From an uncultured Methanoregulaceae archaeon (lineage in GTDB: Archaea > Halobacteriota > Methanomicrobia > Methanomicrobiales > Methanospirillaceae): 64,000 nucleotides of DNA. Made by a program: the position numbers and the translations under genes. The stretch spans positions 1,184,001 to 1,248,000 of the forward strand of contig OY969564.1 in assembly GCA_963701095.1 (NCBI GenBank), given 5' to 3'. The notes under the pieces are model-generated. The model did not search any database and had not been told where the DNA came from. It was given only the letters and a program-made list of their open reading frames with translations. Positions within the stretch are counted from its first letter, which is position 1. Every line of letters starts with the position of its first letter. Of this stretch, positions 21,653 through 61,745 are shown piece by piece.

Positions 21653-21725
21653 TACCCCCGACCAGATTCGAACTGGTGTCGCCGGATCCAAAGTCCTGCA
21701 TGATTGACCGCTACACTACGGGGGT
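21653..21725 (-). tRNA. tRNA-Gln(TTG)
   Basis: ACCCCCG...CAGGA-CT-TTG-GA-TCCGG...GTTCGAATC...CGGGGGTA; has the A1-U72 pair typical of archaeal tRNA-Gln. Confidence 0.95.
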
Positions 21726-22168
21726 TCATGGCATTTATCTCACTATCCAATAGTTACATGGAGTGGTGAGTGTGCCCTGTTATATCGTTTTCCAAACTCA
21801 AAAAAGCATTGATAATTATAACTTGGAAATGAAAAGCCAAGATTCCAGAAACAAAGGAATCATTGGTAATGTTTAGAGAGACAATTGGGATCCGTGTGAT
21901 ATTCAATCTCATTTTGAATAAATGGAAAATTTTGGAAATAAAAATTTATCATACGACGTATATATACCCCACAATTTTGGAAAAAATGGAAAATTCCGGA
22001 TTTTTCTAGTACAAAAAAGTGATTTTAGGACTTTCCAAAAACACGAAAAACATATATTTTCTTTTGTGGTTTTCGATCCCGATATCGAAAGATCCCTGCT
22101 AACGCGTCCAGATTATCCAAGAAAAGGTCAAATATTCGGCAAATGGAAGAGTAAAATGAAGGAAATTA

Positions 22169-22191
22169 GTATATAGCATAATACGGTTTAT
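22169..22191 (-). repeat. 23-bp motif, copy 1 (ATAAACCGTATTATGCTATATAC on the minus strand)
   Basis: Matches the copies at 25108 and 25974. Confidence 0.8.
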
Positions 22192-22368
22192 AGAAGTTTT
22201 CAACATTTCTTATAGATAAACGAAAAATCCACAATTTGAGACTAAAATCAAGAAAAAGGAGAAATTTAAGGATTTTTAAAAATTCTATAAATCGAAACGG
22301 TTTTAATTAGATATCCAAAAAGGTGGTTTTGGACCAAAAAAAACTACAAGGTGAATTTTTTATAATAT

Positions 22369-23289
22369 TCACGAATTGTCATTATCACTGGAAAGAGGGA
22401 AAAACTGCTGGTATACCTGGCGCCGTTCATCGATGTCAGTATGGAGATAAATTTCCGTTGTCTTTATGGAGGTATGACCCAAGTTCTCCTGGACCACACG
22501 GAGGTTCTTTGATCTCTTATACAATTCACTTGCATAACTGTGGCGGATTTTATGAGGGGTGATACCGGGAGGAGCATAATGCTTGAAAATGTGCTGAATC
22601 GCCCTCGGCGAGATATGCTTACCCTGCTGGCCGATAAACAAAGGACCTTCTATCTGGTTTCCTATAAAAGTCCGGATTCCGGCAAGGGTATCATCATCGA
22701 CGAAAACAATCCGCATCTTGTCACCTTTTCCCCGGATACGGATAGTATGTTCATCAAAATCGATATCCTCGACATTCATATTACAAAGCTCAGATACCCG
22801 CACTCCAGTGGAATAAATGGTTCTTACAATGAGTTTATCTCGAGGATCCTCAATCGAATCTATGAGACGGAGAACCTGACTATGTTTAAGATATCGTATC
22901 TCCTGCTGCTTGATACGGGGACGTTCAATGCCACTCAGGGGGTTTGCCAATACAGCTCCCTGGGTAGACAGGAAGCGGTAAAATGAGCTCAGAGTCGAGA
23001 TAATACGGTGAAACGTTTTGGGTTTGTAGGTCTTCATAGTCGAGACAAATGAGAGAAAATCGGTTATCATTGACGGTTGTACATCCACATTTGTATCTAA
23101 CCTGGCATTCTCGAAATCCTTCCAGAAGAAAACAAGTTTGGTAACTTCAGTATGCCGGCGGAGCCAGACATAATAGCCGAAATGTTTGATCACTTGTTCA
23201 TAGCTGTCAAGTGTCCGGGAAGAATAGTTGCGCATCCGCAGGTAATTTCGGTAACTTTTCAGCCAATCCGAAAAATACCCGCTATCCAT
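22369..23289 (-). CDS. xerA: XerA/XerC-like tyrosine recombinase
   Basis: N-terminal SAM-like domain; intact catalytic set TGVRVSE, GKGDK, HKIRH, LGH, TEIY. Confidence 0.92.
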   Translation of the reverse strand: MDSGYFSDWLKSYRNYLRMRNYSSRTLDSYEQVIKHFGYYVWLRRHTEVTKLVFFWKDFENARLDTNVDVQPSMITDFLSFVSTMKTYKPKTFHRIISTLSSFYRFLSTQGAVLANPLSGIERPRIKQQEIRYLKHSQVLRLIDSIEDPRDKLIVRTIYSTGVRVSELCNMNVEDIDFDEHTIRIRGKGDKMRIVFVDDDTLAGIRTFIGNQIEGPLFIGQQGKHISPRAIQHIFKHYAPPGITPHKIRHSYASELYKRSKNLRVVQENLGHTSIKTTEIYLHTDIDERRQVYQQFFPLSSDNDNS

Positions 23290-23322
23290 GCTCTAATCTT
23301 ATTTATCTCAAATTAATTAAGG

Positions 23323-23350
23323 TTTGCGCAGAATATATATTAGACATAAA
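23323..23350. other. dif-like site (11-6-11) upstream of xerA
   Basis: TTTGCGCAGAA-TATATA-TTAGACATAAA; geometry and left arm resemble bacterial dif. Confidence 0.55.
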
Positions 23351-23464
23351 CTAAAAAGAAACCATGATTAAAGCATAGAAAGTATGGAAAAATCTCAATT
23401 TTTTTCAATGGAAATGATGGTGAAATCTCGAAATTTCACGTCTAGAATGCGATTTTACGTCTGT

Positions 23465-23492
23465 ACTTCGTAGAATACCTGTTCTGCGACAA
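23465..23492. other. Second dif-like site (11-6-11)
   Basis: ACTTCGTAGAA-TACCTG-TTCTGCGACAA; the arms are imperfect inverted repeats (TCGTAGAA/TCGCAGAA). Confidence 0.55.
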
Positions 23493-24640
23493 ATCCGGTA
23501 TTACATCAAAATACACATCAATTATTTTTGCGTAGATCATTTACAAGTATTTTGGAAATGATCATCGATTTATTCAACTTTTGATAAAGGTAATTAACGA
23601 AATTCAGATTAATCTTTCGCCTTTTTGCCCCCAAATGGACTGAAAGTGAAATGTCAATGTCGGAAAATGGAAAATAAGATTTATCGACGGTACCAAAATA
23701 TTTCTTTAGATCCTCCCAAAAGTGGCTTTTTTTCAATCACAGTATGCTTTTCCCCATATTATACTGAGATTCGCCAACAAAACGAAGATATGAAGGCCTC
23801 CGTTAAACATAAGGATTGCCAGAAAACGATCCGTTCATTATGTCAGAGAAGGATTGGAAATTCTTTGAGAATGGTTGCAGAGATTATGTACAGAGATGGA
23901 GATCTATTCATTGAGGGGGCCCTCTTTGGATGTTGCCTCAATCTCAAAGGGATATGACCTCGTCATTACCTTATCCTAATTGCGGTGATTTGTAGTGATA
24001 TTTATCTTAATATCATCGTGCCAATTAAACTGCAATAAAAAAGCATTAACCATTTTTTACTATCTTTTGGCGATTGCTCGACGAGAAATGAATGTCCGCG
24101 ATCGCGGTTCTTCGCGAGATCCTGTCAGTCGCTGCAGTCTTGCCAGCGGTCACGTCTAAAAGTTTCGGAAATTTTGGAGAAGTTCCATAAGAAATCCCAC
24201 GTTAAAAATGAGATTTTCCTTATGACGAAATCTGAACTCTCATTCCCTGTGCAATATAATTAGACTAGATAAAATTGGGCCATGTTTCGAGGACAAAACA
24301 TGCCCTGAATTCCAGAGAATATCAAAGTGCAAATCCTGGCATTATGACAATTATCAAACCAGATCAAATCGATAGGTTCCTGCATATTCATCTTCTTTCT
24401 CTTTGGGGGATCGGACCACTGGACCCCAGCTGCCCGAACCAGACCCACTTCAAACCCTGCTGAAGCTGTATATCGGGATCGTTTATCACATCGAGGATGA
24501 ACTACTCGAGATTTAAAAAATGTTACTTCAGTGTGCCCCAGCTGAATAGAACTCTCCAGATTCGAACTATGTCAAGAATTTCGAAATAATTCGGAAATTT
24601 TTGGAAAAATTCCACAGAATATACGGTTTTGGAAATTTGT

Positions 24641-24930
24641 ATAATTTTACTTGCAAATAAAGATTTTCAATATTCGAGTCTTGGGTAAAATGGATTCTTC
24701 CAGATTTTATTACGTCTGAAAATTTTGGAAAATCTGGAAATTTTAGAGAAATTTCGAAAGAGTTACTGCTTTGGAATCAGGATAATTTTTACTTGAGCAT
24801 AAAGATTTTTGATATTCGAGCCTTAGGTAAAATGGATTCTTCCAGATTTTATTACGTCTGAAAGTTTTCGGGAAATTTAGAAATTTTAGAGAAAAGACCA
24901 CAGGAAGTTCTGCTTTAAAAAAATTTTCAT
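24641..24930 (+). repeat. ~142-bp imperfect tandem repeat (two good copies plus a degenerate upstream copy)
   Basis: Identical 38-mer GGTAAAATGGATTCTTCCAGATTTTATTACGTCTGAAA at 24684-24721 and 24826-24863; the flanks also align. Confidence 0.9.
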
Positions 24931-25107
24931 ATAATTTTTTCTCTTTTTATGTTTATCTCAAATCCTTCTCAAGTTTTGAAGAAACTGAATCAGATATTTA
25001 AGAAAGATCACATTAATATCAAAATCTCTCATTTTGTCGTTATTTTTTAAAATAAAGTGAATGTATCTAATTTTACCAACTTTAAATTGATAGAAGACCT
25101 CATTCAT

Positions 25108-25130
25108 ATAAACCATATATTGCTATACAC
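25108..25130 (+). repeat. 23-bp motif, copy 2 (ATAAACCATATATTGCTATACAC)
   Basis: Matches the copies at 22169 (minus) and 25974. Confidence 0.8.
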
Positions 25131-25346
25131 TAAAAGTAATAATACATATACAAAAGGGGAATTAATAGGAAGAGAAAGGTAGTTATAGAATACCCAGACT
25201 GCTCGCATAAAATTTGAAGATTTGCAGGAGAGAGATTTTAGAATGATTCAGAAAGAGGAATCTTCCTAAAGATATCATTGGGAGATTGAAGAAATTATAT
25301 AGCCAAACAAATATTAGGTTAGTAAAGGGAACCATTGGGAATAAAT

Positions 25347-25661
25347 ATGGCAGCTGACATGCAATTTCTGAATACAAAAGAGGTAGCCGAGATTCTGGGG
25401 GTCCACCAGAAAACAGTTCATAACTGGCTGAGGGCCGGAAAACTTGCAGGTACGAAAATCTCCTATCGTGCCTGGCGCATTCCACGTTCAGCATTGGAAG
25501 AATTTGTGGTAAGCAACAGTAACTTCCGTTCAAATGCCTCCGGCAGAGACATTAATAATTCTGGCACGAAGATCGACGCCATTCCTGAAGCGGGAATGAA
25601 AAATTTCATTCGGGACATAATGGGAGAAGACGGTAACGAGAAGCAAACGAATAAGAAATAA
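25347..25661 (+). CDS. Excisionase-family (HTH_17-like) DNA-binding protein
   Basis: FLNTKEVAEILGVHQKTVHNWLRAGKLAGTKISYRAWRIPRSALEEF. Confidence 0.88.
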   Translation: MAADMQFLNTKEVAEILGVHQKTVHNWLRAGKLAGTKISYRAWRIPRSALEEFVVSNSNFRSNASGRDINNSGTKIDAIPEAGMKNFIRDIMGEDGNEKQTNKK

Positions 25662-25973
25662 AGAACTCATTGGTAATACATTTTAGATATTGATTCAATG
25701 AGAGACTAAGATTGAATATCTCCGTATTACATTATATCCATTAATCATAATAGAGAAATAAGATCAATAACCGACATTGATCCTTTTCCATTTTAATAAG
25801 GAATTATAGAGTTCCCCGGTTATTGACTTATATTTTTCAAGGATCACTTTTTCAGCAGGTCATTAAAAATCCTTTCCTAAATAATTTTAATGCCGAAAAT
25901 AAAGTGATAACATATGAATAGATCAACCGAATCGTCCTTAATTCTTTAAAAAACAACGACTATCTTTTTAATC

Positions 25974-25996
25974 ATAAACCGTATACTGCTATATAC
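25974..25996 (+). repeat. 23-bp motif, copy 3 (ATAAACCGTATACTGCTATATAC)
   Basis: Matches the copies at 22169 (minus) and 25108. Confidence 0.8.
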
Positions 25997-26067
25997 AAAA
26001 GAGCCAGATTTGACCAGATTTGGTCTTATTCAATTATTTAGATGATAAACAAAACAGGAAGATTTTC

Positions 26068-26817
26068 ATGGATAAAAACGGCCAGAATGAAATTAACAAA
26101 TATAAAAAATTTAAAAAGGTCGATGGCGCCACTTATCGAAAAGTCAACCAATTCCTACGTAAACGCACGTATATCACAGCAAGGGAATGGGCGCTTGCAC
26201 GATTATGCACAGATTTCCGGACGTCCGGTGGTGCTGAAATGACCTTTATTGGAAAAAACCTTCCAGAACTTGTTCCTTTCATGGAGGACACATACTCCCC
26301 CCAAGCAGTAAATCAGGCTCGTAATTCGTTTAAGAAAAAGGTTCGAAAAGCAAGTGCAACTTTTTTCTATGGAGCGATGTGTGGATTTTTTACAACTGAT
26401 GAGCTTGACGACCTTCTTTTTGAAGCTAGTGAAGTGTCACGCTTTCTATTGGAAGTGGAAGGAACAACCATCGATATAGACGAAGAAATAGATATCGAGG
26501 ACCGGATCACCCGGGTAATGCGGAGCGTGGGTGAGACTGCAAAGACCATTCTTACCACAAGAACAGACAACAAGCTCACCGAGGACACAAATCCCTCCTT
26601 TCAACCAGAGAAAGAAAATAATAACCCTATTCCTCATTCAAATAACGAAATATCAGTTTTATCAGAATCGACCCGAACAGAAATGACAGATGCTAATCCC
26701 AATATTGAGGGAATCAAAACTTTTGAACCTTCAGATGAAAATGGGAAAAAAGAGACGGGCGATCAAACAGTAGATCCGGAAAAACCTCATCTGACACTCC
26801 ACAAAGAGGACATATAA
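26068..26817 (+). CDS. DUF5806-like conserved euryarchaeal protein with a disordered acidic tail
   Basis: FLRKRTYITAREWALARLC.DFR...LPELVPFM.DTYSPQAVNQAR; family recalled from memory. Confidence 0.7.
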   Translation: MDKNGQNEINKYKKFKKVDGATYRKVNQFLRKRTYITAREWALARLCTDFRTSGGAEMTFIGKNLPELVPFMEDTYSPQAVNQARNSFKKKVRKASATFFYGAMCGFFTTDELDDLLFEASEVSRFLLEVEGTTIDIDEEIDIEDRITRVMRSVGETAKTILTTRTDNKLTEDTNPSFQPEKENNNPIPHSNNEISVLSESTRTEMTDANPNIEGIKTFEPSDENGKKETGDQTVDPEKPHLTLHKEDI

Positions 26818-27261: not shown

Positions 27262-28642
27262 ATGGCAATTAAAATGGTTCAAAAACGGTTGTTTGGGACA
27301 AACGGTGTTCGAGGGATAGCAGGAAAAGAAATGACACCGGAGCTTACCCTCAAAATAGGTAAGGCCCTTGGCACAATGAGACCAGGAAAAATTGCAGTTG
27401 GACGGGATACCCGTACCTCCGGTCCGGTTCTCATTAATGCACTCAAAGCCGGACTCCTTGCAACAGGATGTGACGTTGTTGATTGTGGGATCCTCCCGAC
27501 ACCAGCTCTTCAGTATATCGTAAAGGAACATTATGAAGGTGGAGCGATGATCACAGCGTCCCACAACCCCCCGGAGTATAATGGCGTAAAAATTATTGAA
27601 CCAGATGGAACCGAGATGGGTGACGAAGAAACTATTTGTCTCGAAGAATTGCTTTTCGATAAATCGGCACCGTTCAAACAGTGGGATGAGGTCGGAACTG
27701 AGGTGAATGCACTCCATCTGGTTGATGAATATATACATGCCATTACCAAGCAGTTTCCTGAAAAACCAGGGAAAGGCATGACTGTGGTAGTTGATCCCGG
27801 ATCTGGTCCAGCCTGCCACACAACCCCCGCGATCCTGCAGGCGCTTGGATGCAAGGTTCTCACCATCAATGGTGTGATGGACGGGACATTTCCAGGACGC
27901 ATGCCGGAACCATCTCCGGAAGGTCTCAAAGGGCTTGCGGCATTAGTGTTGGCAAATAACGCTGCTTTTGGTGTGGCTCATGACGGTGATGCTGATCGGT
28001 CTGTTTTTGTTGATGATAAAGGCTTTTTCGTGGAAGAAAACCAGGAGTTCGCCCTTTTTGTACAGCATGTCTGTCAAAACGAGAGAGGGGCCATTGTCAC
28101 ACCGGTCAGCACATCCTTTTTGATCGAAATGATAGCCAAAAAAGCGGGATGCACGGTAAGGTACACCCAGGTCGGAAGTATCTATGTTGCCCGTACCATG
28201 CGGGAGCTTATTGAAACAGGAAATAAGGTGATATTTGGTGGAGAGGGAAACGGAGGTCTTATTTTCCCGGATCACCAGTTCTGTCGCGATGGGGGAATGA
28301 CAGACTGCCACCATGGTTTCACTTCTTGCGAGGTCTAAGAGGAGTTTGTCATCCCTTATCAGCGAATTACCACAACGACGGATGATAAAAGAAAAGATCA
28401 AAACACCATATGGTTCACAACTTATTGAACAGCTTAACCAAAAATATGCACGGGAATCGCTCGATCATACAGATGGCCTCAAAATAAAAAAAGAAAGAAC
28501 ATGGGCATTAATCCGGGCTTCAGGAACAGAACCACTTGTCCGCATAATGGTTGATGCTGACGATTGTAAAACAGGTTTGGCACTGTTTGAAGAAATAGAG
28601 ACCTCGGTTTCTGAAATTCTTAAAAAAATGTCCAATAGGTAA
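27262..28642 (+). CDS. glmM: Phosphoglucosamine mutase / phosphomannomutase (frameshift near 28304)
   Basis: LFGTNGVRG, TASHNP, HDGDADR, GGEGNGG, RASGTEP. Confidence 0.88.
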
Positions 28643-60620: not shown

Positions 60621-61745
60621 TTATAAAAGGTAGGCAAGGACCTTGGCCGGCTCATACCGGAGCGTAATGACCCGGGTCCTTCCCTTTCCGCTACGGTACT
60701 GGAGATTGACAAGCCTCATTGCATCCATCTTCTTGATAATCTCGTAGAATCGAGTATACCCTATAGGCACCTGCTCTTTTATGGATTTGTAGACGTCCCC
60801 GGCATTCATTTCGGAACCTGACACACTTTTTGTCGCAAGTTCCCTGAGAATCCTGCGCTCTTCATCCTTAAGTGTCCTCAACGTATATTCGAGATGGAGA
60901 TACTTAGACACGGCATATGCGCCACAGATATCCCCGCGTTCAATACTGCGGCGTGCATCCCTCTCTGCGTTGAGCGCTGCTCTTTTCAGGAGATCGATGC
61001 CGACCCGCAAATCGCCGCTCTTTTGGGTCTGCTCCACGACAAGGTCGAGCATCTCTTCGCTTAACACACCGGTAAAAAAACCCTGCATTGCCCGGGCTCT
61101 CATGATATCTTCAACTTCGGCATTTCCGTAAGGTGGGAAATAGATCTCAGTAGGCCGGAAAACCGAAGCGACCCTGGCATCCACTGCCCGGGAAAGATCA
61201 ACATCCGGGTCACTGATAATTACAATCACACCGATCCGGACGCCCTCGTATGATTCATGGGCCCGCAGTAGCGTATAAAGAACTTTGTTGAGTTCATTTT
61301 CGTAGAGAAGGTAATTGGCGTCGTCAAGTGCCACTAGCAACACATATTCCTCTTTCTGGAGGATTCGGGCAACAGCATCAAAGACCTGTTTGAAAGAGGT
61401 TCCCGAAGACGGAGGGAGATGACCGGATAGTTTCCTGTATATCTGGGAAAGAATTGCAAACTTCGTGTTATCAATTTGGCAGTTGACCAGAACCGGCACC
61501 AGTTTCTTTGTTGTCTCTTCGATCTCCTGGAAAAGTTTCCTGATACTCGTGGTCTTACCAGAACCGGGTAAACCTTTGCAGATCGTATTGAGGGGGCGTG
61601 CACCCCGGAGGCCGGGCCGGATCTGGAACGCTAGTTCGCGCATCTGCGTGTCACGGAACTCGAACTGTTCGGGAACATAATCAATCTCGAAAACATCAGG
61701 GTCCCGGAACAATGACTCGTCCCACATCAGCAGGTTCTTTTTCAT
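60621..61745 (-). CDS. cdc6: Orc1/Cdc6 replication initiator
   Basis: DYVP, GLPGSGKT, VALDD, FPPY, GDLRVGIDLL and a C-terminal winged helix. Confidence 0.95.
   Translation of the reverse strand: MKKNLLMWDESLFRDPDVFEIDYVPEQFEFRDTQMRELAFQIRPGLRGARPLNTICKGLPGSGKTTSIRKLFQEIEETTKKLVPVLVNCQIDNTKFAILSQIYRKLSGHLPPSSGTSFKQVFDAVARILQKEEYVLLVALDDANYLLYENELNKVLYTLLRAHESYEGVRIGVIVIISDPDVDLSRAVDARVASVFRPTEIYFPPYGNAEVEDIMRARAMQGFFTGVLSEEMLDLVVEQTQKSGDLRVGIDLLKRAALNAERDARRSIERGDICGAYAVSKYLHLEYTLRTLKDEERRILRELATKSVSGSEMNAGDVYKSIKEQVPIGYTRFYEIIKKMDAMRLVNLQYRSGKGRTRVITLRYEPAKVLAYLL

Follow-up and report, generated by a model that had tools for sequence, protein, structure and literature searches.

The window analysed was a 64,000-nucleotide stretch of the genome of an uncultured Methanoregulaceae archaeon, and the locus of interest within it is built around xerA (22369..23289, minus strand), which encodes a 306-aa tyrosine recombinase of the archaeal Xer type and lies between the first and second of three copies of a 23-bp motif. 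The product was matched to the XerA equivalog model (NCBIfam NF040815) at 288.8 bits, with a cut-off of 220, and to Pfam Phage_integrase with an E-value of 7e-35, ranking at the top of 12 Phage_integrase matches in the genome and being the sole one of about 306 aa. In a 15-sequence XerA alignment, R163, K187/K190, H245, R248, H271 and Y280 were invariant, and these are candidates for the R, K, H-x-x-R, H/W and Y with which tyrosine recombinases catalyse strand exchange. Between xerA and the second site, positions 23290..25107 form an AT-rich stretch without a convincing gene, carrying recurring GGAAATTTTGGA-like words and, at 24588-24726 and 24730-24868, a tandem duplication of 139-142 bp; the ORF at 23625-23957 gave no Pfam or NCBIfam match, and Rfam gave no match in this stretch, tRNA-Gln being the sole Rfam match. 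A sigma-70 promoter and terminator scan, using models that are not relevant to archaea, produced nothing above shuffled sequences.

The second and third sites are direct copies that enclose a cassette containing a small gene for a DNA-binding protein of the excisionase family (25335..25661, plus strand), matched to Pfam HTH_17 with an E-value of 4e-16 and to TIGR01764 ('excise') at 41.4 bits, with a cut-off of 28.8. This HTH gene occupies the same interval in 14/46 Methanoregula loci, and the other 32 have no conserved ORF there. On the outer side follows the DUF5806 gene (26068..26817, plus strand), the first of a DUF5806-MobB-phosphoglucomutase group; its place outside the site is conserved in Methanomicrobiales. 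On the opposite flank, Methanoregula loci keep tRNA-Gln (21653..21725, minus strand) as their neighbour, at 130-3500 bp from the site on that side. Integration of an element at tRNA-Gln was considered and rejected, because flanks and order were constant in 63/63 informative loci and no direct tRNA repeat was seen; the AT-rich, gene-poor stretch by xerA is an old fixed locus rather than a recent tRNA-Gln integrant.

The three copies of the motif were recovered, with exact letters, where an earlier note on this DNA had placed them, at 22169-22191 on the minus strand and at 25108-25130 and 25974-25996 on the plus strand. Site 1 (D class) lies beyond the xerA stop, with its core TATAGCATAATACGGTTTAT (plus-strand reading, 22172-22191) 181 bp past the 3' end of the gene. 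Site 2 (U1 class; core TATAGCAATATATGGTTTAT in minus-strand reading) has the opposite orientation to site 1 and precedes the xerA start by 1.8 kb. Site 3 (U2 class; core TATAGCAGTATACGGTTTAT, likewise read on the minus strand) repeats site 2 in the same direction, 866 bp farther out, and is followed after 72 bp by the DUF5806 ATG. The outer pair was stretched by a repeat finder to 26-nt arms (22166-22191 and 25974-25999) that are 88% complementary. With up to 3 mismatches, the window gave these three matches, and 0/100 dinucleotide-preserving shuffles of the window gave any; across the genome's single contig of 2,625,686 bases, the same three were the sole matches at up to 4 mismatches, and loosening the scan to 5 mismatches added 9 matches, all unrelated. 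Because the 2.63-Mb genome holds no more than these three copies (up to 4 mismatches allowed), the motif is not a general promoter consensus, and the promoter hypothesis in the earlier note is refuted in its broad form.

The 20-bp core has the consensus TATAGCAnCATAyGGTTTAT and forms a dyad of inverted 8-bp half-sites, ATA[T/A]A[G/C]C[A/G], around a 5-bp centre, with 6/8 positions symmetric. Variation falls mostly in positions 8-14, TATAGCA and GTTTAT being almost invariant, and the flank carries a conserved 5' TTTnGTr and a phased A-tract. Positions 7 and 13 change as a pair (A7/T13 in Methanomicrobiales, G7/C13 in Halobacteria), so that the symmetry of the half-sites is kept. The 11-6-11 Xer geometry in which the motif had been read is retained as one possible register only, with 16/28 matches to Thermococcus kodakarensis dif and with a right arm that is weakly conserved past TTTAT. 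The TAA-N6-8-TTA hallmark is absent from most copies; site 1 of this genome has it. In its left arm, aTTtGaTATAG, the haloarchaeal site is similar to T. kodakarensis dif (left arm TTTTGATATAA), which is described as bound by XerA in ChIP-seq (PMC11840125).

The site classes differ in their centres. U1 is the best conserved class, with the central 7-mer TCATATG in 31/44 loci, and in the U2 class core position 9 is nearly always T, not C. In the genome studied here, the central 7 bases of the three copies are mutually different. The outer copies do share the 6-bp spacer TACGGT, as had been noticed, but this is not a conserved feature: sharing of such a hexamer between the outer two site classes was found in 9/44 three-site Methanoregula loci, versus 8.3 expected when genomes were shuffled.

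The core was found in 60/60 Methanomicrobiales genomes from 6 families (completeness at least 90%), in a scan for which the reversed-pattern control gave almost no matches. Among relatives, it was present in 38/41 and lay beside xerA in 29/30 loci, and in 8 single-contig genomes (G000, G020, G026, G027, G028, G031, G032 and G036) every core match was at the xerA locus. Each Methanomicrobiales genome carries 2-3 copies in one module, and the layout is nearly always a convergent inverted pair around xerA. The D-class copy was found in 68/72 Methanoregula-group loci, and outside this group it sits against the xerA stop codon or overlaps it (overlap in f2 and f3); the pairs of many families span 1.5-2 kb with xerA alone and no AT-rich tract. 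Viral contigs gave 66 single site matches, none with a xer gene, and 4 of the viral-contig matches fall within giant-virus MutS genes. DUF5806 was considered as the site-binding protein and set aside, being linked to the site in 0/80 loci of Halobacteria; its sequence had no PDB match, an Atlas search returned its own family alone, and its AlphaFold model (mean pLDDT 54.6) was too poor for a structure search.

A variant of the core brackets an Xer-like gene in Halobacteria. Among 80 such loci, a site lay about 10-750 bp past the Xer-like stop in 73 and an inverted upstream copy was present in 50, downstream and upstream copies occurring together in 47. The site tracks the Xer gene, and not other neighbours, across two archaeal classes. 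Halobacteria carry 3-5 convergent pairs per genome, and some of these bracket rio2, recJ, parA-like or glycine-cleavage genes and no recombinase; such pairs look more like a regulatory or architectural element, which counts against reading the site as dif. At one Halorussus locus the xer gene is duplicated in inverse orientation, and the duplicate has its own site. A search of the Methanomicrobiales loci for the haloarchaeal RHH/DUF5805 partner found no homologue, with one weak match (E-value 0.006). For Haloferax volcanii, a putative dif upstream of the same operon appears in the published record, identified by a TAA-N6-8-TTA rule; most copies of the present site do not follow that rule, which also counts against the dif reading.

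Comparison of orientations gave evidence of inversion in relatives. In Methanomicrobiaceae, xerA occurs in either orientation between the same flanks (MutS side and DUF5806 side), and state changes on the XerA tree correspond to at least 2 flips of the segment relative to both flanks. Among the 80 haloarchaeal loci, the 71 that share flanks split 44/27 in orientation, with 1 inconsistent edge of 1155 and at least 6 orientation changes of the segment, and at an inversion junction between two Halorubrum species the flank homology runs through the site and ends 7 bp inside in both. In Methanoregula, 0/63 informative loci were inverted, although D and U1 have the same centre in 14/44 genomes, which counts against the dif reading, as does the lack of significant concerted evolution of centres within a genome (14 observed versus 11.5 expected, p about 0.1).

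Across all three sites, metagenome contigs from 4 runs of 1 study (X1-X4) were continuous and had the reference form, and no strand-changing joint was seen in them, contigs being able to hide rare forms. These contigs likewise held no sign of excision between sites 2 and 3, apart from one out-of-register 916-bp skip in one Logan contig (25134 to 26051, side 27); run X4 also contained a loose end at 25102. Tyrosine recombinases run invertible DNA in fim-type switches and in the invertons of Bacteroides. Those systems resemble the present locus in that a tyrosine recombinase gene adjoins or lies within a segment flanked by inverted repeats, and in that both orientations occur among related genomes, but here no mixed orientation was seen within a population (4 runs) or within a genus. 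The flanking inverted repeats of an inverton are present, both orientations in one population or among close strains were not found, and no promoter or coding end that a flip would connect or disconnect was identified. The proposal that the xerA segment is invertible therefore stands in kind, given an Xer-tied dyad site in two classes and the repeated flips in relatives, and does not stand as an active switch here, given the uniformly oriented Methanoregula loci, the reference form in all 4 runs and the differing centres. On the best reading of these sequences, the sites would be able to invert rarely in evolution and would form no active switch in this organism.

The favoured interpretation, held at a rough probability of 0.55, is that the copies are XerA's own putative dif-type sites, capable of rare inversion and not an active switch here. 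The short site found as mirror-image copies on both sides of xerA in many methanogens and halophilic archaea is probably the recombinase's own target, and the three copies would be the Methanoregula versions of an ancient conserved recognition site for the Xer recombinase encoded between them. XerA dimers would bind each core; identical copies on both halves of a chromosome dimer would recombine, resolving the dimer, and recombination in cis of the two inverted copies would flip the xerA segment, an event that has recurred in evolution, yet rarely. Tyrosine recombinases usually follow a homology rule for the central bases of recombining sites, and by this rule the differing centres of the three copies should block their mutual recombination, with recombination between sister copies still possible. 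Site 3 is an extra direct copy typical of Methanoregulaceae, enclosing a small variable cassette (here with the excisionase-like HTH gene).

Other placements of a dif or an origin were examined. A canonical palindromic dif elsewhere in the genome was sought among 5 candidate 11-6-11 palindromes with TAA-N6-TTA and was rejected: the best, at genome position 413834, has 10/11 arm matches and lies roughly opposite cdc6, and it was not found in 24/24 same-genus genomes. The lack of a conserved canonical alternative counts in favour of the dif reading. In six single-contig genomes, the xerA-flanking site lay 72, 98, 114, 156, 164 and 170 degrees from the main cdc6, and this spread of 72-170 degrees was counted as a point against the dif reading; GC skew was weak. 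The possibility that the copies are replication-origin repeats was also rejected, because the pairs of many families enclose xerA alone and the main cdc6 is 0.5 Mb away.

Known Xer systems offer partial parallels. Archaeal dif has been described as a single-copy site of 11-6-11 geometry (PMC8371274), and a single copy per chromosome was not found, there being 3 copies here, 2-3 in Methanomicrobiales and several pairs in Halobacteria; copy number and geometry both count against the dif reading. Some archaea are described as having xerA/dif modules, with two copies in Sulfolobus solfataricus and dif1 and dif2 in Thermoplasma acidophilum (PMC2958812, PMC5357621, PMC11840125). The present locus resembles the XerA/dif systems of Pyrococcus abyssi, T. 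kodakarensis, T. acidophilum and Sulfolobus in its single XerA-equivalog recombinase, in a genome-unique site that forms a conserved but imperfect inverted repeat, in the adjacency of gene and site, as in Sulfolobus and the 'xerA/dif modules' (PMC2958812, PMC5357621), and in the presence of two or more XerA sites at the same location, as reported for S. solfataricus and T. acidophilum; it differs from them in the convergent inverted pair around the gene and the third direct copy, in the 8-5-8 dyad or weak 11-6-11 geometry of the candidate site, and in the lack of TAA-N6-8-TTA from most copies. XerS/difSL of streptococci and lactococci likewise combines one recombinase gene with an adjacent asymmetric site, inherited as a module (PMC5357621), but is bacterial and is described with a single 31-bp site, an 11-bp centre and no inverted partner. 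Plasmid dif modules of Acinetobacter are segments of variable cargo between inversely oriented Xer sites, described as accessory, several per plasmid and in varied contexts, with XerC/XerD encoded elsewhere (PMC6449649), whereas the module here holds the recombinase gene, is chromosomal, is single in Methanomicrobiales and stays put. Neither the varied contexts nor the integration at dif between direct repeats that mark dif modules and IMEX were found, the flanks being fixed.

A local role in transcription was weighed against recognition by XerA. In this case a transcription factor, or a dedicated TBP/TFB pair, would bind the dyad as an operator or bidirectional promoter and control the genes by each copy, namely DUF5806 and the HTH gene here and xerA, mutS, rio2 and recJ elsewhere. 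The T/A-rich site, with TATA-like halves facing both directions and a phased A-tract, suits such a role, as do its distances to reading frames: tightly 67-86 bp before the DUF5806 ATG in most Methanoregulaceae loci, which counts against the dif reading, with the same orientation in 106/107 (the locus sets overlap), about 10 bp before the MutS frame for a third copy in Methanomicrobiaceae, and 50-60 bp ahead of the rio2 and recJ starts in Halobacteria. A local promoter role nevertheless fits poorly, because one copy always lies at the 3' end of the Xer gene, overlapping the stop in f2 and f3, which is not a promoter position, and because in Halobacteria the site follows the Xer gene and not DUF5806, found at none of the 80 loci. 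The distance to DUF5806 also spans 54-550 bp across the order, just 2-3 copies occur per Methanomicrobiales genome, and the convergent pairing and site-bounded, repeated inversions would be left unexplained; local control was accordingly judged unlikely. In a structural alternative, XerA without strand exchange, or another protein, would join the convergent sites, forming a small loop or a domain boundary that encloses xerA and, for the haloarchaeal pairs, other chromosome-maintenance genes as well; the inversions would then be an occasional by-product. This alternative agrees with the conservation of the convergent pair, rather than the single site, as a unit across two classes, with orientations that are stable inside genera, and with the AT-rich 1.8-kb non-coding stretch inside this genome's pair, dif or dif-like sites having been described at SMC-dependent boundaries in large AT-rich intergenic regions of T. 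kodakarensis, T. acidophilum and haloarchaea (PMC11840125). However, the same paper describes the T. kodakarensis boundary as independent of XerA and dif (PMC11840125), and the pairs of many families span 1.5-2 kb without an AT-rich tract; an architectural pair appears distinctly improbable.

The inverted copies might also be terminal repeats of an old xerA element or of a cassette resembling a dif module, now fixed. They enclose a recombinase and variable cargo (IS elements, TnpB, resolvase, HicB, methyltransferase) over 1.5 to 13 kb, inversely oriented Xer sites are likewise described as bounding Acinetobacter dif modules (PMC6449649), and the inverted Halorussus duplicate with its own site points the same way. 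Such an origin is very unlikely in view of the flanks, which are the same in 63/63 informative Methanoregula loci and common to 71/80 haloarchaeal loci, of the single module per Methanomicrobiales genome, of a recombinase that is the housekeeping XerA equivalog, and of the 66 viral-contig matches without xerA. A bolder idea, which was regarded as doubtful, takes the convergent pair itself as the working unit: XerA, or in haloarchaea the Xer-like protein together with its RHH/DUF5805 partner, would synapse the inverted sites in cis and serve as a recombinase-based insulator. If this were true, the loop around its own gene would limit expression of that gene or mark a chromosome-domain anchor, Halobacteria would reuse the convergent pair around rio2, recJ and the parA-like gene, inversion would be a rare leak of the synapse, and the insulator would be older than the split between Methanomicrobiales and Halobacteria.

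To our knowledge, archaea are without FtsK, and the question therefore arises of what keeps XerA from fusing chromosomes as often as resolving them. One review states that no FtsK-equivalent control has been identified in archaea (PMC8371274). In the literature searched on archaeal XerA/dif and methanogen xerA inversions, no Methanomicrobiales dif site was found. The sites discussed here, which are probably the target of XerA, provide two large archaeal classes with a concrete candidate, which in Methanomicrobiales is both conserved and genome-unique, in an unexpected layout of mirror-image copies around the recombinase gene itself that has been flipped repeatedly in evolution. If this assignment is true, the textbook statement that dif is a single-copy site would change.

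The three 23-bp copies described in the earlier note were confirmed letter for letter, with site 1 at 22169-22191 on the minus strand, and site 2 at 25108-25130 and site 3 at 25974-25996, both on the plus strand. In 100 shuffles of the window no match to the motif arose, and across the whole genome (2,625,686 bases, single contig, GC 0.48) the sole matches at up to 4 mismatches were these three, with 9 unrelated matches added when the limit was raised to 5 mismatches. With three copies genome-wide at that limit, the motif is no general promoter consensus; being one was the refuting condition given in the earlier note. The suggestion that it is a shared non-standard promoter is refuted in its general form. 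The central 7-mers of the three copies are TAATACG, ATATATG and GTATACG, no two of them equal.

The sites lie in an AT-rich stretch (21750-26000, GC 0.26-0.45). The xerA gene (22369-23289, minus strand), which scores 288.8 bits on the NCBI XerA equivalog model (cut-off 220) and tops the 12 Phage_integrase matches across the genome, is located between sites 1 and 2, and a small gene for an HTH_17, excisionase-family protein between sites 2 and 3. Beyond site 3 are the DUF5806, MobB and phosphoglucomutase genes, and beyond site 1 are tRNA-Gln and a potassium-channel gene. From xerA to site 2 (23290-25107, ~1.8 kb, GC 0.26-0.41), no convincing gene was found; within it lie two tandem copies of a segment (24588-24726 and 24730-24868, 78% alike), together with recurring GGAAATTTTGGA-like words. 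A comparable setting is known from Thermococcus kodakarensis, in which dif sits in a large AT-rich intergenic region that forms an SMC/TrmBL2 domain boundary (PMC11840125). The phosphoglucomutase gene (27262-28642) is broken into frames of 358 and 109 aa overlapping at 28313-28338, and is a single gene of 450-462 aa in relatives; either a frameshift or a fault of the assembly accounts for the split, and breaks of this kind may be frequent, since the genome scores only 86% complete though it is one contig. At 60636-60794 (genome 1244636-1244794), 38 kb from the xerA locus, there is a second, weak Cdc6_C-like match, and a complete congener has a similar one at a distance of 41 kb from its xerA locus.

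Among relatives in the Methanomicrobiales, a 20-bp core, TATAGCAnCATAyGGTTTAT, was found beside xerA in 29 of 30 loci. A whole-genome pattern scan allowing up to 2 mismatches detected the core in 38 of 41 relatives, with 3 matches in total for the same pattern read backwards as a control, and a second sample, limited to genomes of at least 90% completeness, had it in 60/60 Methanomicrobiales genomes from six families. All core matches in the single-contig genomes (n = 8) were at the xerA locus; some fragmented assemblies (eight) had core matches on other contigs. The typical layout consists of a forward and a reverse copy 1.5-7 kb apart with their TATAGCA ends outward, so that the pair is convergent and inverted. 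xerA is usually inside the pair, with one copy directly past its stop codon, overlapping the stop in families f2 and f3. In family f6, xerA is located immediately outside the pair, at 170-230 bp from one of the two sites, and IS and TnpB genes are inside. The Methanoregula group (72 loci, this one included) has a fixed order of phosphoglucomutase, MobB, DUF5806, site, [HTH], site, spacer, xerA, inverted site and tRNA-Gln, and a third, direct copy is present in 46 of these loci. Further copies were seen in two other groups. Methanomicrobiaceae have a more diverged third copy ~10 bp ahead of the MutS reading frame (L104 8528-8547, L109 8659-8678, L117 8277-8296), head to head with the nearer copy of the pair at 92-102 bp. 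In eleven Methanolinea-like Methanoregulaceae loci, an extra direct copy lies past DUF5806-MobB-phosphoglucomutase, so that this gene group is flanked by direct copies.

Copies were aligned by position class (68, 46 and 46 copies). TATAGCA and GTTTAT were near-invariant, with variation falling in core positions 8-14. Read as a dyad, the core comprises half-sites ATATAGCA and ATAAACCA, alike at 6 of 8 positions, around a 5-bp centre; in Halobacteria their places are taken by ATATAGCG and ATAAATCG. The substitution at position 7 between Halobacteria and Methanomicrobiales is mirrored at position 13, so symmetry is kept, which fits a protein binding as a dimer. The TATAGCA side also keeps a flank (TTTnGTr) and an A-tract at a set distance, and the opposite flank is weakly conserved in Methanoregula. 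Position 9 is T, not C, in nearly all copies of the outermost class, to which site 3 belongs, and their central 7-mer was identical to the one in the adjacent direct copy in 0/44 genomes.

A phylum-wide scan placed a site variant ending GATTTAT in further families, those of the Halobacteria. In 73 of 80 loci the site lies shortly past the stop of a 335-345-aa Xer-like gene; an inverted upstream copy is present in 50/80 and both copies in 47/80. At 111-119 bits, this gene falls short of the cut-off of the XerA model, and five haloarchaeal genomes gave no match that exceeds it. The gene is preceded by a small RHH/DUF5805 gene in all 80 loci, and DUF5806 was found within 8 kb of none of them (0/80), so that the only partner that the site keeps in both classes is the Xer gene. 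Inside the pair of a Halorussus ruber locus, a second, inverted xer copy with its own adjacent site was observed (L276 5808-7096), and such a duplicate is a possible route to the origin of the inverted pair. Exact matches to the 20-bp pattern also occur inside MutS-like genes on four giant-virus contigs, where they are most likely a coding-sequence coincidence.

The bracketed segment has changed orientation repeatedly. In Methanomicrobiaceae, the xerA segment occurs in either orientation between the same flanks (MutS side and DUF5806 side); for L117 vs L120, xerA aligns direct and both flanks align inverted. On a maximum-likelihood XerA tree (35 rows; 24 in one orientation, state A, and 8 in the other, state B), two orientation changes are required, forced by well-supported branches. 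In Halobacteria, 71 of 80 loci had common flank homology and split cleanly by orientation into 44 vs 27, with 1 of 1155 pairwise relations inconsistent, and at least 6 changes are required on the Xer tree, which is a gene tree rather than a species tree. Breakpoints were mostly placed only to windows of 0.2-3 kb, which contain sites; in one Halorubrum comparison (L329 vs L339), the homology of the flank continues into the site and breaks off 7 bp inside it in each genome. On the other side, loci of one genus share a single orientation, as seen in Halorubrum (28 loci) and Haloferax (6 loci).

The proposal that these are recombination sites which could invert the 3.8-kb xerA-HTH segment is partly supported, by the type of site and by the relatives, in which inversion is seen; at this locus none was seen. 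None of 63 informative Methanoregula-group loci was inverted (41 judged on both flanks, 22 on one), and contigs of four metagenome runs from one study span all three sites in the reference arrangement with no inverted form, although contigs could hide a rare isoform. In one run (X4), 916 bp (25134-26051), from just past site 2 to 55 bp past site 3, are missing from one contig, a skip that does not fit the 866-bp spacing of the repeats, and another contig leaves the window sequence at 25102, 6 bp inside site 2; both may be strain variants of the cassette.

Letter comparison with archaeal dif rests on one site, TTTTGATATAATGTACCTTATATGACAA of T. kodakarensis, at which ChIP-seq detected XerA binding (PMC11840125). 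In the 11-6-11 register of the earlier note, 16 of 28 positions agree between this site and the Methanoregula consensus. The haloarchaeal left flank and half-site, aTTtGaTATAG, resembles the left arm of the T. kodakarensis site, and in 58 of 130 haloarchaeal sites, in GC-rich genomes, at least 4 of the six flank letters agree with TTTTGA. The TAA-N6-8-TTA hallmark of archaeal dif sites (PMC11840125) is present in site 1 here but absent from the order-wide consensus. Scanning the genome for 11-6-11 palindromes bearing the hallmark returned 5 candidates. The best candidate for a canonical dif, at genome 413834-413861 (GAAATTCATAA ATACAT TTATGATTTTC), is a near-perfect palindrome roughly opposite the main cdc6 gene, and was rejected, being not found in 24/24 congeners. 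dif has been described as single-copy (PMC8371274); xerA/dif modules, two copies in Sulfolobus solfataricus and two XerA-binding sites in Thermoplasma acidophilum have also been reported (PMC2958812, PMC5357621, PMC11840125). A partial survey of papers on Xer/dif in archaea, and on XerA and inversion in methanogens, gave no account of paired inverted Xer sites around xerA.

The chief support for readings other than recombination comes from several site pairs around housekeeping genes in Halobacteria and from the tight site-to-DUF5806 spacing within Methanoregulaceae. Five haloarchaeal genomes carry 3-5 convergent pairs each, and some of these surround rio2 (three genomes), recJ (one locus), parA-like genes (two loci) and the glycine-cleavage genes gcvT/gcvP (one locus); they are not readily explained by recombination. 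A local operator or bidirectional promoter, which is what remains of the promoter proposal, would be compatible with such positions, and is an unlikely alternative given sites that follow Xer genes into Halobacteria without DUF5806. That the copies form an architectural pair without recombination is improbable, and that they are the ends of a relic mobile module is more doubtful still.

Unique in this genome, conserved, dyadic, linked to an Xer gene and bracketing a segment that has inverted repeatedly in relatives, the three copies are best read, with a probability of roughly 0.55, as cognate sites of XerA in a gene-plus-sites module that could recombine in cis on rare occasions but would not act as a switch in Methanoregula. 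XerA would bind and cut the sites, and the differing centres of the three copies here would block events in cis. Sister copies would recombine with each other, and the module may thereby serve in dimer resolution.
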